Source: an uncultured Flavobacteriaceae bacterium
GTDB lineage: Bacteria > Bacteroidota > Bacteroidia > Flavobacteriales > Flavobacteriaceae
Assembly: GCA_905479095.1 (NCBI GenBank)
Contig: CAJQLD010000021.1
Coordinates: forward strand, 36,837 to 100,836
DNA length: 64,000 nt
Direction of reading: 5' to 3'
The notes beneath the pieces were generated by a model. The model had not been told where the DNA came from. It did not search any database and worked only from the letters and a program-made list of their open reading frames with translations. A program made the translations under genes and the position numbers. Below are positions 23,181 to 40,223 of this stretch, piece by piece; the first letter of the stretch is position 1, and each line of letters opens with the position of its first letter.

Positions 23181-25244
23181 TTAATGTGTTTCGTTTTTTG
23201 ATTTCATAAATAGAGGGGTTGCACATAAATACCATTTTAACTTAAAACCAATTTCGCTAAAGTTGAAACCTGCAGCAGTTGCTGATGCAATATCACTATG
23301 CAAGCCAAAGAGATTAGCTGTAAACCTATTGGAGATATTGTAACCTAATTTACCCTGAAATCTAAATGTATTTTGCCGCTCTTGGTCTTCAACAAACTGT
23401 AATCCAGTTGCAAGGTTTAGATTGTAAAACCATTTTCCAGTTTGATTTTTCACAAGATCCACAAATACCTCAACAACATTAAATTTTTCTGGGCTAAAAT
23501 AAATAACCGGCACTTGATCTTTAAATGTTATGTATTGGTAATTTAAGCCTGTTTTAAGCAACGGTTTATCAAAAAGGTTATAATACACCGAAGTGAATAG
23601 TAAATGCTTCTGGTTGCTGTCATTTTGCCAAGAGTAATTGTATTGCGTATACCAACCTAAATTAAAATTAGAATTTACATTGTAATTTGCATATAAGGTG
23701 TTTTGCACAATTTCTCGGTTTAGTAAATCGGCATTAAAATCTTGCCATTCGCGTTTATAGCCAAGGTCTAAAGTTTGCAGTTTAAACGGTTTTGTTTTAA
23801 AAACGATATTTGTTAAAAACTGTGTGTAATTAGTTGTTTTTGCATTCACATCAGTCACACCAATATTTGTTTTAATAGCTATTTTTGGATGCAGTAAGTA
23901 GTTAAAACCAAATAACAAATTATTTGCTTTGGCTTTGTTAGTGGTGACTTTGTTTTTAGAATTTCTATAACTATACAAACCATTGACTTGTAACTTTGTA
24001 GATAATGGCACAGTGACGTTTGTTGTTTCGGTAAAAGCCTCATTATTTCCATTGTCAAAACTATAGGTCGTTTTTGTTTCAAAAAAAGGCGTAAACTGTT
24101 TGTCTAATATGTTTACAAAGTTTTCAGCATCTTTTTGGTTTTTAAAAATGGACAATGTTTTATAAACTGCTCGATAAGCGTCGTTGTACAAACCGAGCGC
24201 TTTTTGTGCATTGGCCTTCCCTAGATTTCCATCAAAAGAGATGCTGTCGTTTGTTAAAATGGTGTTGTAATCTTTAAGACTTTTTTTGAAATCTCCTTTA
24301 TAGGTATTTAAAGTGGCACGTAAGGCTAAAACCCAATTTTGGTTTGGCTTTGTGAGTATTAAATCCCTAATTAATGATCTAGCTGTTTTATACTTTTTAT
24401 TCCAAATTAAAGCTTGTATGTAACGTTCTGTTGTTTGTTGTGTTTGTGCTTCATTCATAGACGTTAATCCATCAAAAGCTTCTTTACTTATTTTAAGTGC
24501 ATCCTTTTCTTTTCTATTTAAATGCGAGACTAATGCCAAACCATTTAATGCTGTGATTTTTTGACCTGGTTGTTCTGCGATAAGATTATAGCACTCTTTT
24601 GCTTTTTCTAATTGATCTGAAATTAAATATAAATTAGCAAGATTCAGTAAGGTATCGATATCATTATTAAAGAGACGTAAATTTTCTTTTAACAAGTTTT
24701 CTGCTTGCGTATATTCTTGTTGCTGTTGTTTTTGGTAAGCATATCCTAAATACATGTATTTTTTAGAATTCAATGCATTTAAATTATTGGGCTTTACAAC
24801 TAATGCTTTATCAACATATATTAAGGCATTTTCGTATTCTTTTAAATTTGATAATGTGTTTGCATAACTTAAGAGTGCTGGAAAACTTTTAGGCTCTTCA
24901 TTTACTAATATTTTAAAATATTTCTTAGCTTCTTCAAACTTATCATTCCATAACAAAGATTCTCCATAATTCAATTTTACTTCAAAATCATCATTATAAT
25001 TTTCCAATAAATTTATAAAAATCGCAGTGGCTTTTTCAGGATTCCCGTTTAAACCAACAGCACGTCCAAAACACAAACGAGCCGTTTTATTTTGGGCATG
25101 ATCATTTAAGATATTTTGAAAAAATAATTCAGCGTTTTGATATTCTCCAGCTTCTAAATAAGCAAAACCTTTTTGCATATCTTGAGAGAACATAAATAGA
25201 GAAAACGTCGTGCAAAAAAGCAAGAGATAGGGATTGATTTTCAT
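23181..25244 (-). CDS. Secreted TPR protein with probable C-terminal outer-membrane beta-barrel
   Basis: Signal peptide MKINPYLLLFCTTFSLF from ATG 25244; multiple TPR-like helical repeats; last ~280 aa have an alternating aromatic/hydrophobic beta-strand pattern ending GFKLKWY. Confidence 0.7.
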   Translation of the reverse strand: MKINPYLLLFCTTFSLFMFSQDMQKGFAYLEAGEYQNAELFFQNILNDHAQNKTARLCFGRAVGLNGNPEKATAIFINLLENYNDDFEVKLNYGESLLWNDKFEEAKKYFKILVNEEPKSFPALLSYANTLSNLKEYENALIYVDKALVVKPNNLNALNSKKYMYLGYAYQKQQQQEYTQAENLLKENLRLFNNDIDTLLNLANLYLISDQLEKAKECYNLIAEQPGQKITALNGLALVSHLNRKEKDALKISKEAFDGLTSMNEAQTQQTTERYIQALIWNKKYKTARSLIRDLILTKPNQNWVLALRATLNTYKGDFKKSLKDYNTILTNDSISFDGNLGKANAQKALGLYNDAYRAVYKTLSIFKNQKDAENFVNILDKQFTPFFETKTTYSFDNGNNEAFTETTNVTVPLSTKLQVNGLYSYRNSKNKVTTNKAKANNLLFGFNYLLHPKIAIKTNIGVTDVNAKTTNYTQFLTNIVFKTKPFKLQTLDLGYKREWQDFNADLLNREIVQNTLYANYNVNSNFNLGWYTQYNYSWQNDSNQKHLLFTSVYYNLFDKPLLKTGLNYQYITFKDQVPVIYFSPEKFNVVEVFVDLVKNQTGKWFYNLNLATGLQFVEDQERQNTFRFQGKLGYNISNRFTANLFGLHSDIASATAAGFNFSEIGFKLKWYLCATPLFMKSKNETH

Positions 25245-25287
25245 TGGTAATTTTTGATAGTTCAAGTTAAACATTATAAGCGATTCA

Positions 25288-25317
25288 TTCATCTATAGAT
25301 AATGTCCTCTCATCGAA
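25288..25317 (+). promoter_or_regulatory. Candidate LytTR-type tandem box A
   Basis: TTCATCTAT-N12-CTCATCGAA, 21-bp period, in the divergent TPR/flippase promoter. Confidence 0.6.
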
Positions 25318-25499
25318 ATTAAATTGATTTCTAAAGATATCTGGGTAATATTTATACCTGAAATTAACCTAAATACAATTTTGGTTTATACGTTTTGAAG
25401 CACAATCCCCTATATCATTTTTAGCATAAAGAATAGTGATTGAATTTAGAAACACTACGAATGTATTAACCAAGGCTAATTTCTTAATCAAAATAAAAA

Positions 25500-26738
25500 A
25501 TGCAAATCATCTCATTTATACGTTCAAAAAAGATATCGGATGAACAATTATTTATGTTGAGCGTACTGGTTGTTAATGCAGGTAATTATATATACAATCT
25601 TATTCTTGGTCGAATTTTAGATCCAGGACAATTTGCAGATGCAGCGGTCTTAATTACTTTTTTATCTGTTCTATCCTTTGTCGCGATGACTTTTCAATTA
25701 GTAACTGCAAAATTTTCAGTCGTATTTGAAACTAATTTATTTATGATTTTTATTTCAAAGGTTTATAAGAATGCTCTTTTTGTCGGAATTAGTTTTGGAG
25801 GTATCATTATTATTTTTTCAAAACAATTACAACAAATATTAAATACTTCATCTTCAAATATGTTTACTGTTTTCGGAATTGGGATGCCATTATACTTTTT
25901 AATGAGTGTCAATAGAGGCGTTTTTCAAGGAAAAAAAGCATTCAAGTATTTATCAATTACCTATCAATCTGAAATGTTGAGCAGACTGGTCATCACATTA
26001 GGATTGCTACTCGCATTTAACATACAATCGTCACTCGTAATCGCTCTTGGAATTTTCTTCTCCTTTTGTTTTGGTTTAATCCCGTTTAACTTTAAAAGTT
26101 TAAGCTTTAAAACATCTTTAGGCATTGCCCAAAATCAATTAAAATTAGTGAGAAAATTTTTTATAATTACTGCCTTTTATGAATTAACTCAAATTATAAT
26201 TAACAACAGTGACATTCTTTTAGTGAAGCATTATTTTGAATCGTATGAAGCTGGGTTGTATGCCTCTTTGGCAATAATTGGTAGAATTGTATACTTTATA
26301 GCTTGGATGTTTGTGATGTTATTACTCCCTACCGTTGTTGAACTTAAAAAAGAGGGAAAAGCAACAGCTCCAGTTTTATTTAAATATGTTGGGTATATAA
26401 CTATTGTAGCAGCTGTAATTATTTTGAGTTATGCATTATTTCCAAAAACAGCAATTAGCTTATTATTTGGTGAGAGTTATTTAGCGATGGCTCCCTTACT
26501 TTGGAAATATGCTTTAGCAACTGGGTTATTCGCCATTTCAAACATTTTTGCTTATTACTATTTGTCATTAGATCGATTTATGCCTGTTGTGTTGTCTGGT
26601 ATTTTTGGAATGTTACAAATGGGGCTCATCATATTTTTTCATGATACTTTAGAACAAGTCGTTCACATTCAAATTATAGCAATGATGTTATTACTCGTTT
26701 TTCAAATTATTTATTTCGCTTTAGATTCTAAATCATAA
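25500..26738 (+). CDS. Oligosaccharide flippase (Wzx/MOP-like)
   Basis: About 12 TM segments; NYIYNLILGRILDP, NNSDILLVKHYF, AGLYASLAIIGRIV flippase-like motifs. Confidence 0.8.
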   Translation: MQIISFIRSKKISDEQLFMLSVLVVNAGNYIYNLILGRILDPGQFADAAVLITFLSVLSFVAMTFQLVTAKFSVVFETNLFMIFISKVYKNALFVGISFGGIIIIFSKQLQQILNTSSSNMFTVFGIGMPLYFLMSVNRGVFQGKKAFKYLSITYQSEMLSRLVITLGLLLAFNIQSSLVIALGIFFSFCFGLIPFNFKSLSFKTSLGIAQNQLKLVRKFFIITAFYELTQIIINNSDILLVKHYFESYEAGLYASLAIIGRIVYFIAWMFVMLLLPTVVELKKEGKATAPVLFKYVGYITIVAAVIILSYALFPKTAISLLFGESYLAMAPLLWKYALATGLFAISNIFAYYYLSLDRFMPVVLSGIFGMLQMGLIIFFHDTLEQVVHIQIIAMMLLLVFQIIYFALDSKS

Positions 26739-26792
26739 TTATCATGACGTTAAACCCACAATTCAATTGCTATTATAAATAGAAAAAAAAGC

Positions 26793-28010
26793 ATGAAACT
26801 AGCTATCGTAACAGCATTTCCGCCAAGTAAAGTCACATTAAATGAATATGCTTACCATTTAGTAAAACACTTCAGACTAAAAAAAGACATTTCAGAAATT
26901 ATTTTGTTAACGGATAAAACAAAAGGTAAAAAAGATATTTTATTTACTAAAAAAGGGTGTGGCATTACAATCAAAGAATGTTGGTCGTTTAATAGCTATG
27001 CTAACATTATTAATATCACAAAAGCAATTAATAAAACAAAACCAGACGCCGTATTATTTAACTTACAGTTCATGAAATTTGGGGATAAAAAAATAGCTGC
27101 TGCATTAGGGTTATTTTTACCTTTTGTCTGTAAGTTAAAAGGAATCCCAAACATTGTTTTACTGCACAACATATTAGAAGAAGTCGATTTAGAATCTGCT
27201 GGATTTACAACTAACAAATTTCTACAAAAAATATACGGTTTTATAGGGACGACATTAACAAAAATAATATTACTAGCAGATGTTGTTTCGGTCACCATTC
27301 AAAAATATGCTACGACTTTGGAAGAAAAGTATAGTGCTAAAAACGTGATTTTAATACCACATGGAACCTTTGAAGTATCTGACGAAAAACCAGATTTTAC
27401 GGTTCCTAAAGGACCTTTACAAATAATGACTTTTGGGAAATTTGGAACTTACAAAAAAGTAGAGTTATTAATTGAAGCCGTAGAGGTTGTAAGAGATTCT
27501 ACTGGATTAGATCTAGAAGTGGTGATCGCAGGCACCGATAATCCAAATGTAAAAGGGTACTTGGCAAAAGTACAACAAGAGTATAACCATGTACCCCAAA
27601 TCAGATTTACAGGATACGTGAAAGAGTCTGAGGTGCCTACTCTGTTTAAAGAAAGTGCTGTAGTTGTATTCCCATATACATCTACTACAGGAAGTTCTGG
27701 TGTATTACATCAGGCAGGAAGTTATGGCAAAGCTGTTGTAATGCCCTATTTAGGGGACTTAGCATTACTAGTAAAAGATGAAGGTTATCTAGGTGAGTTC
27801 TTTGAACCAAGATCAGTTGAAAGCTTAGCAAAAGCAATAGAAGCAATTGTAACTAATGACTACTACAGAAAAGATTTAGGAAAGGCTAATTATAAAGCTG
27901 CGACGGCATATCCCATGAGTAAAATTACAGACATGTATCTCAATGAGTTCAATTCAATTATAAACAACAAAAAGCAGAGAAAAATACAATCCATTACTGG
28001 CCGGAGATAA
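26793..28010 (+). CDS. GT4 family glycosyltransferase (GT-B)
   Basis: LIPHG, FGKFGTYKKVELLIEA, RFTGYV, VVFPYTSTTGSSGVLHQAGSYGKAVV. Confidence 0.85.
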   Translation: MKLAIVTAFPPSKVTLNEYAYHLVKHFRLKKDISEIILLTDKTKGKKDILFTKKGCGITIKECWSFNSYANIINITKAINKTKPDAVLFNLQFMKFGDKKIAAALGLFLPFVCKLKGIPNIVLLHNILEEVDLESAGFTTNKFLQKIYGFIGTTLTKIILLADVVSVTIQKYATTLEEKYSAKNVILIPHGTFEVSDEKPDFTVPKGPLQIMTFGKFGTYKKVELLIEAVEVVRDSTGLDLEVVIAGTDNPNVKGYLAKVQQEYNHVPQIRFTGYVKESEVPTLFKESAVVVFPYTSTTGSSGVLHQAGSYGKAVVMPYLGDLALLVKDEGYLGEFFEPRSVESLAKAIEAIVTNDYYRKDLGKANYKAATAYPMSKITDMYLNEFNSIINNKKQRKIQSITGRR

Positions 28011-29511
28011 ACTTAAATGCCGCTTTTTTTGTTCCATTGTCATCAATAAATCCATAATATTTTTGAGCATTTTTACGCCAAGGTAGCCCTCCTACAACTT
28101 CATTTGGAATGTTTACAAAGTCATATAAGGTCCAAGACATAAATTGTATATCATTTTCAGAGATGATCTTTTGAGCTTTTTCATAATAATCGGCTTGATC
28201 ATTATTAGAATTTCCAAATGGGTTCCATAAACCACTATAAGAGGACATTCCAAATTCACCCATAACTAAAGGCTTGTTTGGAGCTTTTGCTTTAAGAGAT
28301 TTTATGGAGGCGGCAAGGTTATCTAAATCTTCATAATAATGAAAAGAGATAAAGTCAACTTTATCTTTTAAAATTGCTGCGCTTTGTATGTCGGACCATC
28401 CAATAGTGACTGCATGAGCGGAATCTATAGATTTAACCAAATCAATCAAAGCATTTAACCATGCGATAACATTCAATTCACCTCTTGAATCAAAGTCTAA
28501 GTTAGGCTCATTTTTAATATCCCAAGCAATAATTGCTTCATGATCTTTTAGTTCAGATACAATCGTTTTTGCATGCTGCATATTCAAGGTCCAATTTAAG
28601 ACTGAATAATCACCATAAAAGTCAAAAAGAGTGACCACAACTTTTAAATCATTTTCCTCTGCTGCATCTAATGTTTGCTTTAATTTATCTAATTTTTCTG
28701 TAATAACATTTGCTTTACCAAAATCATCATATTGCACAAAAATACGAACCGTAGTTAATCCGCTATCTCTAATAATCTTAAAGTCGTTTGAAATCGTGTT
28801 TTTTGAAAAAGCACCTCCAAACATATCCCATGGTGTATCTTTTGGATAATAATTAATCCCTCTTATGTTTAAATTGCTCGATGCAACTTTAGCGTTTTCT
28901 TTCTGATAATTTTCTGTGGATACTTTTACCATATGCCTAATTCTCCAAAAACCGTCTTCCAATAAAAGTATGATTTTGTAAGTGGATTTTTCTGTGGTTT
29001 CAAAAATTAATTTTTCATCTTTAAATACACGTTTGTACTCTAAAACATCAGTATCTGTAAGTATTGCTAAGTGTCCATCTTCGCTATAAAAATTTAAAGT
29101 TGGATGGTGCTCTAAAGTTGTAGATTCAATGGTGATTCTATTTTTTATATTTAAATCAATAAAATCAAACCTATTTTCACGAGCGTTATCCGTAAAGTAG
29201 TCCTTAATGACGTCTTTGGTATTCGTCTTATAAGCAACCAGGCTTACATACCATGCATCTAAATAATCATTTTCTAAAGTGTTTAGCGTTACTTCGTCCA
29301 TTGATCTTCCTTCATTATTTAAGGGAGTCCAATCAACTTTAGGGATGTATTGCTCTATTTTTTTTAATTCTGTATGAAGCATTTTACTTCTATCTGCTCC
29401 TGTATTTAGATATACAAACACTGCACTAATCCCAGATATAATAATTACAATAACTAGGAGATATGAGCCTAATAAAAGACTACGTACTATATTTTTATTT
29501 AAACCTACCAT
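27994..29511 (-). CDS. Membrane-anchored clan GH-A glycoside hydrolase (GH5/GH2-like TIM barrel)
   Basis: N-terminal TM anchor; RGINYYP, WDIKNEP acid/base Glu, ISFHYY, VMGEFG nucleophile Glu. Confidence 0.8.
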   Translation of the reverse strand: MVGLNKNIVRSLLLGSYLLVIVIIISGISAVFVYLNTGADRSKMLHTELKKIEQYIPKVDWTPLNNEGRSMDEVTLNTLENDYLDAWYVSLVAYKTNTKDVIKDYFTDNARENRFDFIDLNIKNRITIESTTLEHHPTLNFYSEDGHLAILTDTDVLEYKRVFKDEKLIFETTEKSTYKIILLLEDGFWRIRHMVKVSTENYQKENAKVASSNLNIRGINYYPKDTPWDMFGGAFSKNTISNDFKIIRDSGLTTVRIFVQYDDFGKANVITEKLDKLKQTLDAAEENDLKVVVTLFDFYGDYSVLNWTLNMQHAKTIVSELKDHEAIIAWDIKNEPNLDFDSRGELNVIAWLNALIDLVKSIDSAHAVTIGWSDIQSAAILKDKVDFISFHYYEDLDNLAASIKSLKAKAPNKPLVMGEFGMSSYSGLWNPFGNSNNDQADYYEKAQKIISENDIQFMSWTLYDFVNIPNEVVGGLPWRKNAQKYYGFIDDNGTKKAAFKFISGQ

Positions 29512-30722
29512 AGGATTTTAGAATTAAACGTTTTCTTTAATCCAGCCGTTTTAAGAACTATAGAATAAGTATCGTTTTTAAATACATCTGGTTTTAAATA
29601 GAAATCTACAAATCCATTAAAGGACGTTTTGGTCATCGTTTCAAGTACTCTATTGTTTTTATAAACGAACAGTTTAACTTCCAATCCATCAGGAATCATT
29701 TGATTCATAAAACTTTGTAGAGGTCCAACCGATATTCCTCTATTCGTTTCTGAAAATTCAACTTTAAAATCTTTCACAACCTGACTGTAGTTTAATGTGA
29801 TTGTATTACTTTCTGCAATACCCTCCACATAAGCCTTAACAGTCCATTGCGTACCATAATCAGGATGTATCATTTTAGAAGTTGCAACTCCGTTAATGGT
29901 CGTGCCGGAAGTATTTAAAATACTTCCTTTATCATTGGTTATAAAAAAAGAAACAAATGTACCATCACTAATAATATTGTTCTGTACATCTGTTAGAACA
30001 GACGTAGAAAATGTAGTAACCTGATTGCCATCGGCATACGCATGTGAGCGACTCGCTAAAATTTTAAAATCAATTGGAATCGCTGGAAAAACAGTGATAG
30101 AAAATTCTTTAGAATTTGTATGTAATGCTTCAGAAGAGACTAAGATGCGACCGCTTTTATTTTGAGAATATATATTTTTATAAGCAATAAAATTTTTAGT
30201 ATAAATATCATCTTGTTTTTCTAAATTCAAAAATTGATACTTTGTTTTTACGAGTGTGTTTTCGGCTAATGGATTGTCTAATGAATCGGTTGGAATCACA
30301 ACCAACATGGAATAATCCATTCCACCAGCTTCAATACTGGGAGGTCCAATATAAGTTTCCATCGAAGAAACAACTTGCTTTGGATGGATATTGAATTCCC
30401 CAGATATTGATGACTCTTCATGAATTAATTCCCATTTTATGACACCAATTTTACTGGAAATATTGGAAGGGAATGTATAGCTTAGTATTTTGTTCTCGTA
30501 AATTGGAGTTAACAAGGTAGAACCATAACTATTTGAGCAATATAAAAGTGGTTTTATTTCTTTTGTAGTTGCTACTTTTAAAACGATAGTTGTTCCTGCT
30601 TCAAATGCTGTTTGAGTCGTTTCTAAAGTGAAGCTTAAAGCGACTTCACTATTTTTAACGACTACAAATGAGGAGGATAAAATCAAGATCAATAGGAATA
30701 TGTATGTGAATTTATGCTGCAT
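29505..30722 (-). CDS. Secreted hypothetical protein, beta-rich (possible Ig-like domains)
   Basis: N-terminal signal/TM; HAYADGNQVTTFSTSVLTDVQNNIISDGTFV resembles invasin/Big_1 Ig segments; translationally coupled to neighbours. Confidence 0.6.
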   Translation of the reverse strand: MQHKFTYIFLLILILSSSFVVVKNSEVALSFTLETTQTAFEAGTTIVLKVATTKEIKPLLYCSNSYGSTLLTPIYENKILSYTFPSNISSKIGVIKWELIHEESSISGEFNIHPKQVVSSMETYIGPPSIEAGGMDYSMLVVIPTDSLDNPLAENTLVKTKYQFLNLEKQDDIYTKNFIAYKNIYSQNKSGRILVSSEALHTNSKEFSITVFPAIPIDFKILASRSHAYADGNQVTTFSTSVLTDVQNNIISDGTFVSFFITNDKGSILNTSGTTINGVATSKMIHPDYGTQWTVKAYVEGIAESNTITLNYSQVVKDFKVEFSETNRGISVGPLQSFMNQMIPDGLEVKLFVYKNNRVLETMTKTSFNGFVDFYLKPDVFKNDTYSIVLKTAGLKKTFNSKILW

Positions 30723-33700
30723 TAATTTAGGTTTCCAATGTAAGAGTTCATTTCAATTTTTATATAACTAAAGTCTGGATGCTTGATTTTTTGTAATTCA
30801 GAACTTGAATGATTTTCGATTCTATTCGGTATTATTTTATTTGAAATATGGGCATTAGGCAACCCATTTACAAAAACATTCTCCATAGACTCACTAATGA
30901 TTTTTATTTTACCATTCTTCAAAATTTGATATTCAAAACCTTTTTTTCGCTGTTGTCTGATCCCCTCTTTTAGAAATAAATGATCGACCCAAAGCATTGT
31001 TTTGTTTTGGTCGTAATAAGAGATTAAAAGTTGAGGCACTGTAATCTCCTGAATGCCGCTATTAAATAAATTTCCGCTAATAATGTCTCCATTTATATCT
31101 AATTGACTTAAGACACTCTTTTTATATAAATCAGATCCAGAAACATTTCCCGCTACTTGTAAATTGAATTTTGTAGGATGTTCTTTAAAATCAACAGGCG
31201 TAAATTCATCTGGATTAAAGGTGTCGGGTATAGAATCTTGCGTTTTTGACCATGCAATACCTTCAAAATTAATTCTAAAAGCACTTGACTCTTTAGGAAA
31301 TAATTTATGTTTAACATGGTATTTAGCGTTATACGTTGCAAGCTCTTTATTGTGATCATCATACAATGTGCCTTTAAGCACAATATCAGCAGGTACATTA
31401 TCTATATTTTGAATTTCTCCAATGATGGCAAAATGAGTCCCGTATTTTACAAGTCTTGCTGATAACACTTCTAAAACAGGTTGTTTTAAAATATCTTCAT
31501 GATGCGTTTGTTCTGTTGTTATACGTCTTCTTCCTTGATTAAAATAACTAGTCGTATTATTTGAAAAAAGTTGATCGGGTGGTAAATCAGTGTCTAAGCC
31601 TTCTGATTTTATATACCATTTCTTATGATATTTAGATACTGACTTATAATCAATTTTTCGTATTTTTTCGAGAGGTGTAATCCAATCAGCAATTACTTTG
31701 ACGGTTGCCAAACTATCATTTCTACTCGTAATAATTGTTTCAATGGCATCCAGTTTTGCATAACTATTTAGCAAACCTCCTGAGAGGGAGGTCTCAAGCA
31801 TATATTGTGAAATTGAAATATTACTTGTGGGATCTATCAAACTATATGCTATTTCAAACTCTTTGAAATCTAACGCGTCATAATAGGCAATTATAGCGTT
31901 TTCTGGACTTCGTTGTGAGTCATTTTTTAAATAGAATTGATAAAGATTATAAAAGACAATTACAACTAAAAAAATTGACCAAAAGTGTGTGATTTTCAGG
32001 ATTGATTTTGAGAACTTCGAATAACGATTAGAAAATTTTAAAAATTCAGGTGTTTTTTTATGTCTTGTTTTTAAAGTATTTACCAATAACATTTGTATGT
32101 TTAAAATAAACGCTATTAATACCGTTAAAAATGGCACTATTCCCCATACAATTTTTTGCCATTTTGCGACATCATCCTTGGGTAAAATAGATGAAATTGG
32201 TGATACATTCAATCGCTCCCAAACCATAATTCCATTTTCTAATTTCTGCAATCGTTGCCAACCACAGAAATAGAGTATCGGATCATAAAACTTATCATTA
32301 GAGAAAATATATTTAAGATTATATTTATCTGGAGTTGTCAAAAACTGCTGTAATGAACCAATTCCTGCGACCCCTTTAAATTTTGAGTTTTCTAAACGCT
32401 CTATAGGTCTAGTGGTTAGTTCTGGTAATCTTCGCGCCGAATGATAATTTCCGTCGACTGTCATTGCATTAGTTTGCGCACTTAACCATGCCATTTGATC
32501 ACCAAAACCTAAAGTTAAAAACCGCCATTTATCGTGATCATCTTGATTTAAGAAGTTCACAATAGGGAGCATCTCAATTTTTTGCGGCTGGAATGGCCTA
32601 AAGTAACCAAGACTCATGGTGAAAACAGTCATAAAGATAAATAGTCCAGCAAGGATTCCTCCAATAATACGATGGTAAATTGCTCCAAAACGCACTCGAA
32701 TCAAGGCTTTTAAATCCCCTTCTACAAAACGATACGCAAATTCACCTAGTAGGGGTAACGACATAATAGAAGCCCAAAGCGTAAATCTATCTAATGTAAG
32801 AATGTTAAATGCTGTTTCACCTAAAACCATTCTTGGAATTGGGGTCGTTCCGCCAGTTCCTAAAATCGTTAGTAGTGTTATCGATAAACCGAAAAAGAGA
32901 TAACGTTTACTATAATATCTATAAAAAATATATGGCAATAGGATGAGTAGAATTCCCCAAGGGATTAAAAAGAACATTAGACCAGAAGACGTAATTTCTA
33001 AAAAATTATCTCTTGATCCGTGCGGAATGGGTACTTGAGTTATTGGATTATTTTTTGAATTAATCCAATATGGAAAAATACAGCCAATAATAATAACTAG
33101 TGAAGCCATTCCAAAACTAATAATCCTGTTAAAGAGTTTAAAGAAACTATTTAGAAAAATTTTAAACGAAACTTCTTTTAGTGTGTCTACTTGATCTCGA
33201 GACACATCTAAAATAACCATTCCTATTAATGGAAAGACAAAAAATACCATTCCGAATATAGGGGTCACATGATGAGAAGTAACAGTCACAGCAATTAATG
33301 ACAAGGAAGTTGCTAAATATCTTGATCTACCTGTTTTAAGCCATAAATAAATTTCTGGTAACGCATGCATTAAAATAGAAATCCCAACAATACTTGGCAA
33401 TTGACCAAATACGTGAAGCGTTTCAACAAATGATGACGAAAATACTGCTAAAATAGAGGCATAACCCGCAACCGTTTTATTTGATGTAATTAATAACGAA
33501 AACCGATACACTCCAGTTATAAAAAGGACTATTGAAATTAGAGCGACCGAGAACAATCCAAACTTTAACCCCCCCATCATCGACAGTAGTCCAATAGATT
33601 GATGAACTAAAGGAGGATAGCTCATAACCGTAAAGCCTGTATACCACTCATAATTCCAAGGTTCAAACCAACTATTGGCATAATGGTCCGAAAAAAATAA

Positions 33701-33811
33701 ATGGATCAAAGCATCATAGGTACTTTCTAAAGTGAAAAACATGGAAGTACCATGAAACACAACCCCAATTAGTAGTGCAACAATCAAATATTTATTGGTG
33801 GTTTCTTTCAT
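30722..33811 (-). CDS. Large polytopic membrane protein, GT-C-like N-terminus with extracytoplasmic C-terminal domains
   Basis: A dozen or more TM segments in the first ~630 aa; YDALIH...WNYEWYTGFTVMSYPPLVHQ first loop resembles PTPS-related/YfhO-like GT-C proteins. Confidence 0.6.
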   Translation of the reverse strand: MKETTNKYLIVALLIGVVFHGTSMFFTLESTYDALIHLFFSDHYANSWFEPWNYEWYTGFTVMSYPPLVHQSIGLLSMMGGLKFGLFSVALISIVLFITGVYRFSLLITSNKTVAGYASILAVFSSSFVETLHVFGQLPSIVGISILMHALPEIYLWLKTGRSRYLATSLSLIAVTVTSHHVTPIFGMVFFVFPLIGMVILDVSRDQVDTLKEVSFKIFLNSFFKLFNRIISFGMASLVIIIGCIFPYWINSKNNPITQVPIPHGSRDNFLEITSSGLMFFLIPWGILLILLPYIFYRYYSKRYLFFGLSITLLTILGTGGTTPIPRMVLGETAFNILTLDRFTLWASIMSLPLLGEFAYRFVEGDLKALIRVRFGAIYHRIIGGILAGLFIFMTVFTMSLGYFRPFQPQKIEMLPIVNFLNQDDHDKWRFLTLGFGDQMAWLSAQTNAMTVDGNYHSARRLPELTTRPIERLENSKFKGVAGIGSLQQFLTTPDKYNLKYIFSNDKFYDPILYFCGWQRLQKLENGIMVWERLNVSPISSILPKDDVAKWQKIVWGIVPFLTVLIAFILNIQMLLVNTLKTRHKKTPEFLKFSNRYSKFSKSILKITHFWSIFLVVIVFYNLYQFYLKNDSQRSPENAIIAYYDALDFKEFEIAYSLIDPTSNISISQYMLETSLSGGLLNSYAKLDAIETIITSRNDSLATVKVIADWITPLEKIRKIDYKSVSKYHKKWYIKSEGLDTDLPPDQLFSNNTTSYFNQGRRRITTEQTHHEDILKQPVLEVLSARLVKYGTHFAIIGEIQNIDNVPADIVLKGTLYDDHNKELATYNAKYHVKHKLFPKESSAFRINFEGIAWSKTQDSIPDTFNPDEFTPVDFKEHPTKFNLQVAGNVSGSDLYKKSVLSQLDINGDIISGNLFNSGIQEITVPQLLISYYDQNKTMLWVDHLFLKEGIRQQRKKGFEYQILKNGKIKIISESMENVFVNGLPNAHISNKIIPNRIENHSSSELQKIKHPDFSYIKIEMNSYIGNLN

Positions 33812-33873
33812 CGATAATCTTCACAGTATCAGCAATGTAAATATAAATTATTCTAATAGCATTTCAATTGCTT

Positions 33874-33903
33874 GTCATCTAAAGCAATTGACCATTCGTC
33901 TAC
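33874..33903 (+). promoter_or_regulatory. Candidate LytTR-type tandem box B
   Basis: GTCATCTAA-N12-TTCGTCTAC, 21-bp period, in the divergent GT-C/REC-GT2 promoter. Confidence 0.6.
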
Positions 33904-33986
33904 ACATAATAATTAATTAATCTAAAGAACAATTTTAGACCCCTCTTGTATAGTATTTTAGAAGTCTCTAAATAAAATATCATACT

Positions 33987-35201
33987 TTGAAAATATTAGC
34001 GATAGATGATCAAAAACTAGTGTTGCTTCCAATAGAAAAGCGGTTAAATGAACTTGAATATAAAGTCAAAACTGAAACAAACTCTATTAAAGCAATAGGC
34101 ATTTATCATTCGTTTAAACCCGATTTGGTAATCGTTGATATTAACATGCCTAAAATTTCAGGATTAGAAATTGTGAAATATATTAGAAATTCCGAAAATC
34201 CGAAAACACCTATATTAATTTTATCTGGCGATACAAATGATAACGTCATAATTGAAGGGTTTGATTTAGGAATTAATGATTACATGAAAAAACCAATAAG
34301 CTTAAATGAAATATGTGTTCGAATAAAAAAATTAATTGGAATTCCAAAACAAGTAAATACCGTGAAAACGATCAGTCAAGTAATCATCCAACAACGCTGC
34401 GTAGGAGTCGTAATTCCCTGTTATAACGAAGAGCAACGTTTGTTAAGTAAAAAGTTTACTAATTATATTGATAAAAACTCTGGCTATCATCTATGTTTTG
34501 TAAATGATGGTAGTAAAGACAAAACTTTAGAAGTCCTTAAGAAATTACAAAAAGGCAGAGAAGAGTTTATAACGATTTATGATTGCAAAAAAAATGGTGG
34601 AAAAGCCGAAGCTGTTCGTTTGGGAATGCTCTACATGGCTAAAAAAGAAGATATCGATTATATAGGTTTCCTAGATGCCGATTTATCGACCAATCTAACC
34701 GATTTTGATGATCTAGTAAAAACAATAGAACATTCTGATTTCAAAATAGTGAGCGGGTCTAGAATTACACGAATGGGAGCAAATATCACAAAAGAGTCCG
34801 CTAGAACCGTTATAAGTTTTACAATTAATTTTATAATTAGAAAAATTTTATCCATGGATTTTAAAGACACACAATGTGGTGCGAAAATATTTCATAAGGA
34901 TATTATCTCAATCGTTTTTAGAGATAAATTTATAACAAAGTGGATTTTTGATGTTGAAATATTTAAAAGAATGTCACAATATTATGGTCTAAAAAAAGCC
35001 AAAACAATGCTTTGTGAACAACCGTTAAAAAAATGGATACATGCTGATGGCTCAAAATTATCTTTAAAAGACTCGTTTAGAATTATAAGTGACTTAGCAC
35101 TAATTGCTTGGGTTTATAGATCAAAAAAAATAAAAAATAAAGCTTTAGCAGAAGCTTTATATACTGACCAAACAGGATCCTACTCCCCTACGGATTATTA
35201 G
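33987..35201 (+). CDS. Receiver domain-GT2 glycosyltransferase fusion
   Basis: TTG start; REC motifs IDD, VIVD51INMP, ILS, KKP; GT2 motifs VVIPCYNEE, FVNDGSKD, NGGKAEAV, FLDADL, DTQCGAK (polyprenol-phosphate sugar synthase-like). Confidence 0.9.
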   Translation: MKILAIDDQKLVLLPIEKRLNELEYKVKTETNSIKAIGIYHSFKPDLVIVDINMPKISGLEIVKYIRNSENPKTPILILSGDTNDNVIIEGFDLGINDYMKKPISLNEICVRIKKLIGIPKQVNTVKTISQVIIQQRCVGVVIPCYNEEQRLLSKKFTNYIDKNSGYHLCFVNDGSKDKTLEVLKKLQKGREEFITIYDCKKNGGKAEAVRLGMLYMAKKEDIDYIGFLDADLSTNLTDFDDLVKTIEHSDFKIVSGSRITRMGANITKESARTVISFTINFIIRKILSMDFKDTQCGAKIFHKDIISIVFRDKFITKWIFDVEIFKRMSQYYGLKKAKTMLCEQPLKKWIHADGSKLSLKDSFRIISDLALIAWVYRSKKIKNKALAEALYTDQTGSYSPTDY

Positions 35202-35247
35202 TACCATTTGAATACTGGATTAAACTATAAATAAATACAGTTAAGTT

Positions 35248-35266
35248 TCAAGCTTTAACAGCTTGA
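35248..35266. terminator. Hairpin between convergent REC-GT2 and LytTR genes
   Basis: TCAAGCT-ttaac-AGCTTGA 7-bp stem. Confidence 0.55.
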
Positions 35267-35277
35267 GAGAACGTATC

Positions 35278-35991
35278 TTATAATAAATTAAGCAGCTTCA
35301 TTAGCTGAGGTCTGTTGGAGCGACTTACGGGAATTACATCTCTTTTTATCAACACACTATTGTCTTCAATATCAATGATTTTTTTGATATTTATAATATA
35401 AGAGCGATGAATTTTTAAAAACAAATGGTCTGGAAGTTTATCTTCTATTTTTTTTAAAGTAGAATGTACCATATAGTTTTTGTTCTCTGTTTTTACATGA
35501 ATATAATCCCCTTTTGCTTCAATGAGGTATATACTAGGAATATCAATTTTAATAAGCCTTCTGTCAATATTAATATACAAATCGTCTGCAGAAGTCCTTT
35601 CTGTTTTTTTTGATGAATCATAAGAATCAACCGATGAATTCTGTTTGTCTGTTGCTTTTTGTAGTGCCTTTTGAAAACGCTCAGGAGCTATTGGTTTCAC
35701 TAAGTAATCTAAAATACAATCGTATTCAAAAGCTTGTATAGCAAAATTTGAATCTGAAGTCGTCAATATTATTTTTGGAGGATTTTTTAATGTTTCAATA
35801 AAATCAAACCCTGTGAAATCTGGCATGTGAATATCTAAGAAAATTAAATCAACCGTATGTTGATTTAAATATTTAATGGCTTGAATTGCATTTGGAAACT
35901 CTTCAATAACATTAAGATTTTCAACTTTAGAACATAACTGTCCAATAATAGCTCTTGCAGTAACCTCATCATCAATAATAATACAATTCAT
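35278..35991 (-). CDS. LytTR family DNA-binding response regulator
   Basis: REC (IIDDE, IFLDIHMP, DYLVKP) plus LytTR (IYLIEAKGDY, FLKIHRSYIIN, IPVSRS). Confidence 0.95.
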   Translation of the reverse strand: MNCIIIDDEVTARAIIGQLCSKVENLNVIEEFPNAIQAIKYLNQHTVDLIFLDIHMPDFTGFDFIETLKNPPKIILTTSDSNFAIQAFEYDCILDYLVKPIAPERFQKALQKATDKQNSSVDSYDSSKKTERTSADDLYINIDRRLIKIDIPSIYLIEAKGDYIHVKTENKNYMVHSTLKKIEDKLPDHLFLKIHRSYIINIKKIIDIEDNSVLIKRDVIPVSRSNRPQLMKLLNLL

Positions 35992-36000
35992 AAATACTAA

Positions 36001-36318
36001 CTATAGTTGTTGTAAATAATTTGTTATGTTAATTAATATAGATTTGAATTCTTGATTAAGGCTTGTATTTCCTTTTAATAAATCGTTTTCAAAAGCTGAA
36101 GCAATTTCATAACTTTTATCAAGACCCAATATACTAATTTTATGCTTAAGTTTATGCACATTATCTGCAGTCAACTTAAAGTTTTTAGCTTTAAAGTTTT
36201 TTAAATATTCTTCTTTCTCTAAAGGAAACTCCATTTTAATTATATTAATTATCTTTTTCTCAAAGGCCGTATCTCCTCCTGACATATTATATATATAAGA
36301 TAAGTTTGGTGTTTCCAT
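36001..36318 (-). CDS. Stand-alone Hpt histidine phosphotransfer protein
   Basis: 105 aa helical protein with VHKLKHKISILG Hpt motif. Confidence 0.85.
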   Translation of the reverse strand: METPNLSYIYNMSGGDTAFEKKIINIIKMEFPLEKEEYLKNFKAKNFKLTADNVHKLKHKISILGLDKSYEIASAFENDLLKGNTSLNQEFKSILINITNYLQQL

Positions 36319-36320
36319 AT

Positions 36321-37535
36321 TTATTTTTTTAACGTAAAATGGAATGTAGTTCCTTTTCCATAATCAGATTCTATCCATATATTTCCATTATAAAGATCTA
36401 TAATTTTTTTGACAATTGAAAGTCCTATTCCTGTAGAATCTTTATGATCATTTAGTGAATGGAAAATTTTGAAAATTTTATCATGGTATTTTTTTTCTAT
36501 TCCAACGCCGTTATCCTTAATTGAAAATTGATAAAACGATTTTTTTTCAGAAACGTCAATTTCTATTAAACCGTTTTTTTTATTATTAAATTTAATCGCA
36601 TTACCAATTAAGTTTTGAAACAATTGCTGAAATTTTGTTCGTTCACCAAAGACAACTGGCAATTTATTCTTAACATTAATTTTAATATGACTTGGAATAA
36701 AAATAATTTTTTTCAAGTCTTCAATAACTATATTTAAATCAACATTTAGTTTTTTAGATTCGTCCAAACTAACACTAGAATACAATAATACATCCGAAAT
36801 CAACAGCTCCATCTTTTCTAAAGTGGATTCGATATGACCAAAGTTTTGAAGACTGTTTTTATCAAATTTTCCTATATTATCTTCTTTTAGCCAACTTACT
36901 AAGGCGTAAATACTACTTAGCGGTGATTTTAAATCATGGGATACAATGTGTGCATATTCTTGAAGTTCATCATTACTCTTTCCAAGTTTCAAAAGTAACT
37001 TTTCTTTTTGGAGTTCAAGGTTTTTAATTTCAGTAATATCCCTAACAATTCCTTGTGCAGCTATGGCTTTATGGTTTTCATCATAAATGATACTTGCATT
37101 AATATGAACTAATTTTTGATCATTTGATTTTGTATTTATTTTAACTTGAAAATTTGTGATCGATCCATTATTAATTAATTTACTGTAACTTTTTTTGACT
37201 TTTTCAACCTCTGAAACATCGACGAGAGTAAAAAGATTAATATTTTCTTGATTGTTGTCATAGCCAAGCAAACTGGTTGCAGGTTCATTCATTTTTATAA
37301 CATTGCCCCTAAGATCCATAACAACATATGCATCTACTATATTTTCAAATACACCTCTCAGTTCAGATGATTTTTCAGCAATTAATTTCTCTAATTTAAA
37401 ATTAGATTTTTTTAGTTTTTGGGTAAGGTCATAGAATTCGGTAGATTTTCCTTCTAAAATTTTTTCAGCAGCTTTTCTCGCCCCTTTCTCACGTTTTAAA
37501 GCTCTTAATAAGATGCCTTCTAGTTGTTGATTCAT
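36321..37535 (-). CDS. Soluble PAS-domain sensor histidine kinase
   Basis: N-terminal coiled coil (REKGARKAAEKILE), PAS, H-box SHDLKSPL, N-box NLIGNAIKF, KDNGVGI, GIGLSIV, GKGTTF; no TM segment. Confidence 0.93.
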   Translation of the reverse strand: MNQQLEGILLRALKREKGARKAAEKILEGKSTEFYDLTQKLKKSNFKLEKLIAEKSSELRGVFENIVDAYVVMDLRGNVIKMNEPATSLLGYDNNQENINLFTLVDVSEVEKVKKSYSKLINNGSITNFQVKINTKSNDQKLVHINASIIYDENHKAIAAQGIVRDITEIKNLELQKEKLLLKLGKSNDELQEYAHIVSHDLKSPLSSIYALVSWLKEDNIGKFDKNSLQNFGHIESTLEKMELLISDVLLYSSVSLDESKKLNVDLNIVIEDLKKIIFIPSHIKINVKNKLPVVFGERTKFQQLFQNLIGNAIKFNNKKNGLIEIDVSEKKSFYQFSIKDNGVGIEKKYHDKIFKIFHSLNDHKDSTGIGLSIVKKIIDLYNGNIWIESDYGKGTTFHFTLKK

Positions 37536-38074
37536 TTATTCTTTGTGATGCTAAATTTGACTTCAGTTCCATCCTCTTTGATTTTTTCTAAATCAATGAC
37601 TGCTGTAGAATTAAAATACTCAAAGGTTTTATTCATCAGACCTAAGCCAAAATGATGCATAGCCCTACTAGACTTGTAAATCATTATTAATGAATTTTCT
37701 GTTTTTTCAATGACCTCAAATGTTGGTAATTCCGCATCTGGGTAAATTTTTCTAACCTCAACATGAATATGGTTTTCAATAGATGAAATCATTTCTATAG
37801 GGTCTTTATAAATTGCTAAAAGTCCAGGATAACTACTTTCAATTACACTAAAAAAATGCTCCGCATACACAAGTAAAAGGGCGTCTATAGAAATTTTTGT
37901 ATGCGCACTTAGATGCTGAAGTAATTGTAACATTTCAGAAAATTCATAGGTGCCAACAGAAGTATAGATGCCTTCAGACTCTAGTTTTGAAGCACTGATA
38001 ATTTTATCAACAACTTCCAATCCAAATTTAGTTTCTACAAGCTCTAAAAATTCAGTAAGTACGATTCCTTTCAT
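37532..38074 (-). CDS. H-NOX (heme NO/O2-binding) sensor
   Basis: MKGIV N-terminus, YTSVGTY, proximal His104 in HIHVEVRKIYP, Y133-x-S-x-R137 heme motif. Confidence 0.93.
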   Translation of the reverse strand: MKGIVLTEFLELVETKFGLEVVDKIISASKLESEGIYTSVGTYEFSEMLQLLQHLSAHTKISIDALLLVYAEHFFSVIESSYPGLLAIYKDPIEMISSIENHIHVEVRKIYPDAELPTFEVIEKTENSLIMIYKSSRAMHHFGLGLMNKTFEYFNSTAVIDLEKIKEDGTEVKFSITKNK

Positions 38075-38483
38075 TTGTGTTTTTTAATTCATTTATACTC
38101 CAATACGCTAATAGTTTTTCAATTTTAGATACATAATCTTCATATTTTAGAGGTTTGAGTACGTAGCCTGCAATCCCAATTTCATAACAAGCAATCAAAT
38201 CTTTTTGATTATTGGAGGTCGTTAGTATTATTGTTGGGATATATTTTAATGTATCATCATTTTTTAAAATAGATAAAAACTCGATCCCATTTATTTTGGG
38301 CATGTTTAAGTCTAATAAAATAATATTCGGGAGATTGGTTTTTTGTGCTAATAGTTTTAAATCATCTTCGACATTATTAGCGCCAATGATTTCATGATTT
38401 AGTTTTAATTTTGAGATGGTTCTATTAAACTTCATAACTTCAATAGCATCATCTTCAATAAGTAGGATTTTAAGGGTTTTCAT
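38052..38483 (-). CDS. Single-domain response regulator (Rcp1-like)
   Basis: LLIEDD, ILLDLNMPKING, ILTTS, YVLKP. Confidence 0.93.
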   Translation of the reverse strand: MKTLKILLIEDDAIEVMKFNRTISKLKLNHEIIGANNVEDDLKLLAQKTNLPNIILLDLNMPKINGIEFLSILKNDDTLKYIPTIILTTSNNQKDLIACYEIGIAGYVLKPLKYEDYVSKIEKLLAYWSINELKNTNERNRTY

Positions 38484-38563
38484 TTCAATAAAAAATTAAA
38501 TAATTTCTAAAATAAATATATCCTACGGGTGGTCCTATATATTTTGTTTGATGGTTGGGAAGT

Positions 38564-38594
38564 GTCGATGAATAGCTAAAATATGGCGATGAAT
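38564..38594 (-). promoter_or_regulatory. Candidate LytTR-type tandem box C
   Basis: Minus strand ATTCATCGCC-N11-ATTCATCGAC (9/10 identical, 21-bp period), 80 bp upstream of the signalling operon. Confidence 0.65.
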
Positions 38595-38684
38595 TGTAAT
38601 GCTGATTTTGGCGGTTTATTTGAAACTCGATTTATAAGTCTATTTCTTAGTTGTCTACTTAGTTGCTCAATTTTAAGAAGCACC

Positions 38685-40223
38685 TTATCCCAACCACCCA
38701 TCACGATCCAAACTTCTGTATTGAATGGCTTCACTAATATGGGCACTTTCTATAGACGAAGCGCCTTCTAAATCGGCAATGGTTCTGGAAACTTTTAAAA
38801 TACGATCATAGGCTCGCGCTGACAAACCGAGGCGTTCCATAGCGGTTTTTAAAAGCTGCATTGAATTCGCATCTAATTTACAATAAGCACGTATTTGCTT
38901 CACATTCATTTGTGCGTTGTAATGTACACTACTCGATTTTTCAAAACGCTGTGTTTGTAATTCACGTGCTTTAGTCACCCGTTTTCTTATATCCACGGAG
39001 GACTCCCCTTTGCGCTCGTCTGACAGTTTTTCAAACGGGACCGGTGTCACCTCTATATGGATATCAATACGATCCAATAATGGTCCCGAAATTTTACCCA
39101 AATACCGTTGCATTTCCCCCGCAGATGACATCGTAGGCGCATTTGGGTCATTAAAATACCCACTAGGACTTGGGTTCATACTGGCCACCAACATAAAACT
39201 ACTTGGATAGGTGACTGTAAACTTGGCACGTGAAATGGTCACCTCTCGATCTTCTAAGGGCTGACGCATGACTTCTAATACCTCCCGTTTAAATTCTGGT
39301 AATTCATCTAAAAACAACACCCCATTATGAGACAGTGAAATTTCACCGGGTTGCGGGTAACTTCCCCCACCCACGAGGGCTACATTTGAAATCGTATGAT
39401 GGGGCGACCGAAATGGACGTTGTGCAATTAATCCTTTTTGAGCACCAACCCGCCCTACTACAGAATGTATTTTAGTCGTTTCCAAGGCTTCGTGCAAGGT
39501 CATCGGAGGCAGAATTGATGGCAAGCGCTTGGCGAGCATGGTTTTTCCCGCGCCCGGTGGCCCAATTAATATAATGTTATGTCCACCAGCAGCAGCAATT
39601 TCCATACAGCGTTTGATGCTCTCCTGCCCTTTGACATCAGAAAAATCAAATTCAGGATGCTCTAAGTTTTTTTGAAACTCGGCATGGGTATCTACTATGG
39701 TTTGCTCTAAGGCTTTGTTTTTATCAAAATAATTAATCACTTCCGAAATGTGTTCCACACCATACACTTTCAACCCGTCGACAATGGCAGCTTCTTTTGC
39801 ATTTTCTTTAGGTAGAATAAATCCTTCAAAACCATCCTCTAGAGCTTTAATCGCAATTGGCAACGCCCCTTTGATGGGCTGTACTGATCCATCTAAGGAG
39901 AGTTCTCCCATAATGACATACCGATCAATGTTGACCTCTTTTATTTGATTGGAGGCCGTTAAGATCCCCATTGCCAACGACAAGTCATAGGCAGCCCCTT
40001 CTTTGCGCATATCCGCAGGCGACATATTGATGATGAGTTTTTTACCGGGAATTTTATAACCATTATTTTGAAGCGCAGCCGCAATTCGGAAGTTACTTTC
40101 TTTAATGGCGTTATCTGGTAATCCCACCAAATGGTAGCCGATGCCTTTATCGACATTGACTTCGATTGTGATGGTATGTGCTTCCACGCCAAAGACGGCG
40201 CTTCCATAGACTTTTTTGAGCAT
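38685..40223 (-). CDS. comM: YifB/ComM Mg-chelatase-like AAA+ ATPase
   Basis: Lon-like N-domain (GLPDNAIKES, YDLSLAMG), Walker A GPPGAGKT, PFRSPHH, LFLDELPEF, GPLLDRID, YRSLD. Confidence 0.95.
   Translation of the reverse strand: MLKKVYGSAVFGVEAHTITIEVNVDKGIGYHLVGLPDNAIKESNFRIAAALQNNGYKIPGKKLIINMSPADMRKEGAAYDLSLAMGILTASNQIKEVNIDRYVIMGELSLDGSVQPIKGALPIAIKALEDGFEGFILPKENAKEAAIVDGLKVYGVEHISEVINYFDKNKALEQTIVDTHAEFQKNLEHPEFDFSDVKGQESIKRCMEIAAAGGHNIILIGPPGAGKTMLAKRLPSILPPMTLHEALETTKIHSVVGRVGAQKGLIAQRPFRSPHHTISNVALVGGGSYPQPGEISLSHNGVLFLDELPEFKREVLEVMRQPLEDREVTISRAKFTVTYPSSFMLVASMNPSPSGYFNDPNAPTMSSAGEMQRYLGKISGPLLDRIDIHIEVTPVPFEKLSDERKGESSVDIRKRVTKARELQTQRFEKSSSVHYNAQMNVKQIRAYCKLDANSMQLLKTAMERLGLSARAYDRILKVSRTIADLEGASSIESAHISEAIQYRSLDRDGWLG

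Follow-up and report, generated by a model that had tools for sequence, protein, structure and literature searches.

Arrays of 21-bp direct repeats as probable operators of a LytTR regulator encoded with an H-NOX phosphorelay in Flavobacteriaceae

A 64,000-nt stretch from an uncultured Flavobacteriaceae bacterium (GenBank assembly GCA_905479095.1, contig CAJQLD010000021.1, positions 36,837 to 100,836; hereafter the window) carries a sensor operon that encodes an H-NOX protein, a phosphorelay and a response regulator with a LytTR domain, next to a cluster of glycan genes. The promoter regions of this cluster contain three sites, A, B and C, built of tandem boxes, which an initial annotation made from the sequence letters alone had read as operators of the LytTR regulator. 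We consider it likely that A, B and C, together with a fourth site on another contig (C86), are operators of the cluster's REC-LytTR protein (35278-35991), organized as arrays of 21-bp repeats in the position of an activator. Observed directly are the sites themselves, their uniqueness and conservation, the way they are oriented and phased to promoters, and their occurrence together with the LytTR operon; binding of the LytTR protein to the boxes, the sign of the regulation and an input from nitric oxide (NO) are what the model predicts.

Each site was found exactly as first described: A at 25288-25317 on the plus strand (TTCATCTAT-N12-CTCATCGAA), B at 33874-33903 on the same strand (GTCATCTAA-N12-TTCGTCTAC, with ACCATTCGTC at 33891-33900) and C at 38564-38594 on the minus strand (ATTCATCGCC-N11-ATTCATCGAC). 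The exact 21-bp period holds at all three. B ends 84 bp and C 81 bp ahead of a co-oriented start codon, and A and B sit in intergenic regions of divergent genes. As had been claimed, every promoter region of the cluster is marked, since its five transcription units have three promoter regions with one site each. Other parts of the description needed revision (Table 1). The period was right but the proposed 9-bp repeat was too short, as the conserved unit is about 17 nt long (consensus yCATTCRTCKACAsTTAA) and occurs two or three times per array. The boxes do form three pairs, but not pairs only, because B and C each have a third, weak unit; and the list of three sites, though correct, lacked the one on C86. 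Unit 1 of B is of the same weak 'AATCTAAAG' type as in the orthologous GT1 and REC-GT2 sites.

The shared core arranged as a pair, TCRTCKM-N14-TCRTCKM, occurs five times in the 2.23-Mb genome, which has the look of a draft assembled from a metagenome, and three of these occurrences are A, B and C; 13 other spacings give 0 to 3 occurrences (mean about 0.7). Because the TCRTCKM consensus had been fitted to the sites post hoc, we adopted a matrix drawn from other genomes. A 21-column weight matrix was built from the orthologous sites of 29 genomes, the present one excluded, and scanned as a period-21 dyad along both strands of the whole genome (4.47 million positions). The three best dyads genome-wide were A (21.5 bits), B (21.2 bits) and C (18.7 bits). 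Fourth came the C86 site (C86:49-90, 14.1 bits) and fifth the proximal and third units of site C (9.0 bits), and the next independent site scored 7.6 bits. Only the 21-bp spacing was strongly enriched. Maxima at other periods were low except at 22 and 27, where the strong unit of B takes part in each case, and the outlier at period 22 (20.1 bits) is explained by the third unit of that site. The reversed matrix peaked at 6.3 bits, and among 20 column-permuted matrices the best dyad averaged 9.0 bits (maximum 18.6) and the third-best did not exceed 9.5. This genome-wide check, which the initial annotation had called for, found the paired motif to be essentially unique to the promoter regions of A, B and C.

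Conservation was assessed in orthologous loci of the family, in which H-NOX orthologs are present in 137 of 401 sampled genomes; 23 orthologous loci of 20 kb were examined. Plain k-mer counting in 31 regions upstream of REC returned CCATTCGTCGACACTTAA as the most widely shared word. When these regions were aligned (anchored display and MAFFT; alignment A1, 23 sequences), three units became visible: CCATTCGTCGACACTTAA, then (G)TTATTCRTCKACACTTAA exactly 21 bp on, then a degenerate ..TAACGAAAT. The 21-bp period is kept in about 30 orthologs. The sensor operon lies close to the glycan cluster in 17 of the 23 loci, in several gene orders, and the matrix dyads recur at the same functional places in all gene arrangements: ahead of REC and of GT1, within the TPR/flippase region, between the membrane-protein gene and REC-GT2 or flippase, and just 3' of LytTR, where the dyad precedes a gene for a protein of 800-940 aa, this gene being the ortholog of the one that follows the C86 site. 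The A-type site, TTCATTCATCTACAGCAA.. TCCACTCGTCGAAATT, is present in 13 of the 14 loci that carry the TPR/flippase region by our own count. The site upstream of GT1 was not found in the window, where the gap at that place is only 54 bp. A further 80 named loci have 99 dyads that score more than 15 bits, every one of them in the orientation of LytTR and none on the opposite strand. The motif is thus kept at orthologous positions in about 30 genera, as the proposed comparison of orthologous promoters required of a real operator, and the best-conserved site of all is the one ahead of the sensor operon, which supports the feedback on that operon suggested earlier.

Bacteroidota promoters follow a -33/-7 rule, with TAnnTTTG as the -7 consensus in Bacteroides and Flavobacterium, and for this reason a sigma-70 promoter scan was dropped in favor of a search for TAnnTTTG. 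Counted from where the last strong unit of an array begins (n=61, orthologous loci), an exact TAnnTTTG stands at +62/63 in 23 cases and at +83/84 in 8 more; the chance expectation at +62/63, estimated from the genome-wide frequency of TAnnTTTG (0.0008 per position), is about 0.1. It occurs almost nowhere else within 140 bp of the last strong units, and just five times in the 140 bp upstream. The T, A, T and T columns of the -7 box are invariant in alignment A1. In the present genome all four sites have a -7 box at the same offset, namely +62 at C86 (TAGGTTTG, an exact match), +63 at B, and +62 at both C and A. With the last strong unit 62-63 bp (3 x 21) before the -7 box, the array ends at or abuts the -33 region, and this is the position expected of an activator that recruits RNA polymerase. 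A promoter-abutting activator position is also the usual one for LytTR regulators.

The same geometry makes it improbable that the LytTR protein acts mainly as a repressor or roadblock, particularly on the divergent TPR/barrel and membrane-protein operons. Such an action could be envisaged because the arrays lie near divergent start codons, at 41-100 bp in many genomes and at 40-59 bp here (A is 40 bp from the TPR/barrel start codon, against 41-100 bp in orthologs; B is 59 bp from the membrane-protein start codon, against 59-66 bp in orthologs), and could overlap divergent promoters; moreover, Shewanella has in HnoC an H-NOX-linked repressor that phosphorylation releases (PMC8738867). Every array, however, is oriented to the co-oriented gene and phased at +62/63 with its -7 box, abutting the -33 region rather than lying over the core promoter, the phasing having been examined on the co-oriented side. 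Of the five-unit regulon that had been proposed, the three co-oriented units (flippase-GT1, REC-GT2 and the sensor operon) each have a site in promoter-proximal activator geometry; the two divergent units, the TPR/barrel operon and the operon for the membrane protein, Ig-like protein and glycoside hydrolase, may be controlled as well, given that they share intergenic regions with the sites.

We then asked whether the motif travels with the operon. A strict dyad pattern, one mismatch allowed, gave 90 matches in 74 of the 401 family genomes, and the backwards-read control gave none. H-NOX is present in 69 of the 74 and a LytTR ortholog in 3 more. Matches occurred in 56 of 94 genomes with the membrane-protein gene, in 15 of 48 with H-NOX but without that gene, and in only 3 of 259 with neither H-NOX nor the glycan cluster, one of which has a fragment of an orthologous LytTR gene at the end of a contig. 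Two genomes (G073 and G244) have a match but no LytTR ortholog at E<=1e-50; these matches may reflect chance or incomplete assemblies. Beyond the 89 genomes that have both the membrane-protein gene and H-NOX, the four other intact clusters are accompanied by a LytTR ortholog (63-79% identical) in the same genome, in three of them on the cluster contig. Two of these four, G042 (L075) and G207 (L076), have no H-NOX gene and a larger kinase (673 and 765 aa) but keep REC, Hpt, LytTR and the glycan cluster; the REC-upstream dyad is retained in both, at 42.6 and 38.7 bits, respectively. This suggests replacement or fusion of the sensor on a constant output module. The motif follows the REC-kinase-Hpt-LytTR core, not the H-NOX sensor.

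Because the motif tracks this core and is not general elsewhere, the distribution argues against a regulator encoded elsewhere. One could suppose that the operators are real but are read by one of the four LytTR paralogs or by an unrelated factor, as there are five LytTR-domain genes in the present genome and 6-14 matches to the regulator in relatives. Yet a regulator with a wider regulon should leave sites in operon-less genomes, where the motif is nearly absent, and it would not explain why the sites stay where H-NOX has been lost and LytTR kept, or why the best-conserved of them fronts the very operon that encodes the cluster's LytTR. We therefore give this reading little credence.

The fourth site, C86:49-90 (L074:49-90), is of the same operator type and lies 48 bp from the contig end. 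It is 46 bp ahead of a gene for a 1192-aa protein (L074:136-3714) with DUF6923 repeats and a Por_Secre_tail domain, the C-terminal sorting domain of type IX secretion (T9SS). In 14 other genomes, orthologs of this cargo gene stand directly 3' of the LytTR gene, behind a box. The gene on C86 is therefore best explained as a member of the regulon that has moved to another contig here and kept its operator.

About a quarter of the sampled family genomes carry the glycan cluster and about a third the H-NOX operon, and H-NOX is present in 89 of the 94 genomes that carry the membrane-protein gene. Carriers include Winogradskyella, Psychroserpens, Algibacter, Dokdonia and Aquimarina, and there are copies in Saprospiraceae. 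LytTR orthologs 75-77% identical to the regulator were found in Portibacter lacus (L147) and in an uncultured member of that family (L128), a finding suggestive of horizontal transfer; a 27.7-bit dyad lies 3' of the LytTR gene in L128, and none was found within 4 kb in L147. The cluster is patchy within its genus (2 of 20 genomes), and a copy of the comM 3' end at 22920-22947 matches 38705-38732, across the cluster, at 27 of 28 positions. The repeat and the patchy presence fit a 15.8-kb cluster inserted as an island at the 3' end of comM. Although this island-like character, with its comM relic, and the after-the-fact fitting of TCRTCKM could be taken to mean that the boxes are chance resemblances or island-borne repeat debris with no regulatory role, we regard that as very improbable, since the three sites come out on top genome-wide with an independent matrix but not with the controls, and sequence, position, orientation and promoter phasing are kept over about 30 genera and many rearrangements.

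Several observations weigh against the sites being operators of the cluster's LytTR protein. The window's sites score 18-21 bits, compared with 43-61 for most orthologs of the site upstream of REC; taken singly, the distal units of B and C have about zero bits; and the -7 box of site A, TAATATTT, is poor. A genome of the same genus (G011) keeps just the REC-upstream site above threshold, and the regulon may be decaying or diverging in the window's lineage. The H-NOX operon of G022 (L010), with a LytTR protein 61% identical, has no box within 20 kb, no pattern match in its genome and no glycan cluster, and is an exception to autoregulation. Just half of the H-NOX-positive genomes matched the strict pattern, which implies limited sensitivity or a diverged motif. 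Finally, the four other LytTR-domain genes of the present genome offer other potential readers.

If the sites are operators of the REC-LytTR protein, the circuit might work as follows. H-NOX would sense NO and modulate the PAS-histidine kinase, and phosphate would pass via the stand-alone REC and Hpt proteins to the LytTR regulator, with the REC-GT2 enzyme as a probable further recipient. Phosphorylated LytTR dimers would bind the repeats and activate their own sensor operon, creating positive feedback, as well as the flippase-GT1 unit, REC-GT2 and the T9SS-secreted surface protein; possibly they would also modulate the two divergent operons that share intergenic regions. With less assurance, we are inclined to see here a regulon widespread in marine Flavobacteriaceae, in which an H-NOX sensor of NO acts through a four-step phosphorelay on a LytTR activator that directly switches on a dedicated machinery for polysaccharide synthesis and export, a glycosyltransferase under receiver control and a T9SS surface protein. 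Carried on a mobile island, such a regulon would connect NO to surface or biofilm behavior independently of cyclic di-GMP (c-di-GMP).

Table 1. Repeat units, promoter elements and genes of the cluster in the window.
Feature	Position	Strand	Sequence, score or assignment
Site A unit 1, strong	25284-25304	+	TTCATTCATCTATAGATAATG; 14.8 bits
Site A unit 2, CGAAAT type	25305-25325	+	TCCTCTCATCGAAATTAAATT; 6.7 bits; exactly 21 bp past unit 1
Site A weak -7-like box	25346-25353	+	TAATATTT; 62 bp past unit 1 start; two mismatches to TAnnTTTG; same offset as ortholog -7 box
Site B unit 1, weak	33870-33890	+	GCTTGTCATCTAAAGCAATTG; -2.9 bits alone; in second-best dyad of the genome
Site B unit 2, strong	33891-33911	+	ACCATTCGTCTACACATAATA; 24.1 bits; best single unit of the genome
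Site B third unit, weak	33913-33933	+	TTAATTAATCTAAAGAACAAT; offset 22 bp
Site B -7-like box	33954-33961	+	TATTTTAG; 63 bp past strong-unit start; one mismatch to TAnnTTTG; offset as in orthologs
Site C distal unit	38577-38597	-	ACAATTCATCGCCATATTTTA; 0.7 bits; in third-best dyad; aligns with conserved distal unit CCATTCGTCGACACTTAA
Site C proximal unit, strong	38556-38576	-	GCTATTCATCGACACTTCCCA; 18.0 bits; aligns with conserved proximal unit
Site C third unit, degenerate	38535-38555	-	ACCATCAAACAAAATATATAG; aligns with third unit of orthologs, ..TAACGAAAT; negative matrix score
Site C -7-like box	38507-38514	-	TATTTTAG; 62 bp past proximal-unit start
Sensor operon	35278-38483	-	REC, H-NOX, PAS-histidine kinase, Hpt, REC-LytTR; Pfam
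Stand-alone REC	38052-38483	-	Pfam
H-NOX	37532-38074	-	PF07700, E=6.9e-38
PAS-histidine kinase (PAS-HisKA-HATPase, 404 aa)	36321-37535	-	Pfam
Hpt	36001-36318	-	Pfam
REC-LytTR response regulator, proposed reader of the boxes	35278-35991	-	LytTR PF04397, E=9.7e-21 (residues 145-234); Response_reg PF00072, E=1.3e-19
Flippase-GT1 unit, putative target 3' of site A	25500-28010	+	Flippase-like 25500-26738 (Polysacc_synt_3), GT1 26793-28010; Pfam; site A co-oriented
REC-GT2 unit, putative target 3' of site B	33987-35201	+	Response_reg and Glycos_transf_2 (Pfam); site B co-oriented
TPR and outer-membrane barrel-like exporter candidate, divergent at A	23181-25244	-	TPR families
Divergent unit at B	27994-33811	-	1029-aa membrane protein 30722-33811, Ig-like protein 29505-30722, TIM-barrel glycoside hydrolase 27994-29511; Pfam

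The genes of the sensor operon overlap or are 2-9 bp apart, the end of H-NOX overlapping the start of the kinase gene by 4 bp, and their order is the same in the 23 orthologous loci. The H-NOX gene adjoins a histidine kinase gene, as in H-NOX-associated kinase signaling, and LytTR is the sole DNA-binding domain that Pfam finds in the cluster. A sequence search of the Protein Data Bank with the regulator returned receiver-domain matches only and no LytTR-domain structure. Most orthologous operons have two extra genes between the first kinase and Hpt, coding for a protein of 377 aa and for another kinase of about 350 aa (L042:3233-5415 and equivalents); the operon in the window is a reduced version with one kinase. 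Several orthologous loci (L044:137, L047:92, L048:108, L052:122 and L055:149) have an extra strong unit about 550 bp upstream of REC, with a -7 box at +83/84, which precedes a small gene not in the window. In orthologous loci, moreover, the A-type site and the flippase gene are separated by a gene for a 92-aa STAS-like (anti-sigma-antagonist-like) protein (e.g., L042:14721-14999); neither this gene nor a relic of it was found in the window at 25326-25499. The TPR/barrel gene most likely starts at 25244, judging by the signal peptide and by orthologs that align from residue 1 of the shorter form. A start at the in-frame ATG at 25292, inside box A, is disfavored, as it adds 16 residues ahead of the signal peptide.

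The operator model defines a testable regulon, with a consensus, a unit spacing, a promoter phasing, four predicted targets here and more in relatives. It predicts NO-responsive genes in abundant marine Flavobacteriaceae associated with particles and algae, and the motif, a first operator consensus for a LytTR regulator in the phylum, can serve to look for more targets in any genome. The literature on H-NOX, LytTR and Bacteroidota, coverage of which was incomplete, yielded no description of this regulon, so that an earlier description is possible; nor did we find a paper there on the role of H-NOX in Bacteroidota.

H-NOX sensors steer biofilm formation in Proteobacteria, mostly via c-di-GMP or quorum-sensing circuits. 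Known H-NOX circuits run through HnoB/HnoD, through HqsK-LuxU-LuxO or through the repressor HnoC (PMC8738867, PMC6335343). The H-NOX/HnoK networks of Shewanella and Vibrio resemble the present one in placing an H-NOX gene beside a histidine kinase gene, in branched or multi-step phosphotransfer, in a biofilm-related output and in feedback on the hno genes, there exerted by HnoC (PMC8738867, PMC6335343), which is a functional parallel only. Unlike them, the cluster has no c-di-GMP enzymes; its output is a LytTR protein with its own operator family fronting glycan and T9SS cargo genes, and a GT2 enzyme with a fused receiver provides another output.

A site at the regulator's own operon and an exact spacing are typical of Gram-positive LytTR systems, and both recur here. 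The DNA bound by LytTR regulators abuts the promoter and comprises a pair of imperfect direct repeats, each 8-13 bp long and separated by about 12 bp, and the operators of the Gram-positive quorum-sensing members (AgrA, ComE, PlnC/PlnD, VirR and FsrA) are, like our boxes, imperfect direct repeats with a 21-bp period (PMC4064291). The present sites differ from these in their Bacteroidota host with -33/-7 promoters, in a unit of about 17 nt, in arrays of up to three units and in the rigid spacing of 3 x 21 bp up to the -7 box; the input differs too, coming not from a peptide-sensing membrane kinase but from an H-NOX phosphorelay in which the REC and Hpt proteins are free. AlgR of Pseudomonas aeruginosa is likewise a LytTR-type regulator in control of an exopolysaccharide (alginate) pathway, with the core site CCGTTCGTC, and its sites can be found within genes or at distances of hundreds of bp from the start site (PMC4064291). 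The strong units, CCATTCGTC, among them ACCATTCGTC at 33891-33900, are identical to this core at 8 of 9 positions, and C86:49-90 reads ACCGTTCGTC exactly, a likeness of sites that need not mean orthology of the proteins; the kinship was compared at the level of shared Pfam domains, and the partner sensor of AlgR is AlgZ/FimS, unlike here. As the operator architecture is that of known LytTR systems, the arrays are known as a kind. What is new is the phylum, the longer unit, the presence of as many as three units per array, the spacing of exactly three periods to the -7 box, and the wiring of H-NOX through LytTR to glycan and T9SS genes.

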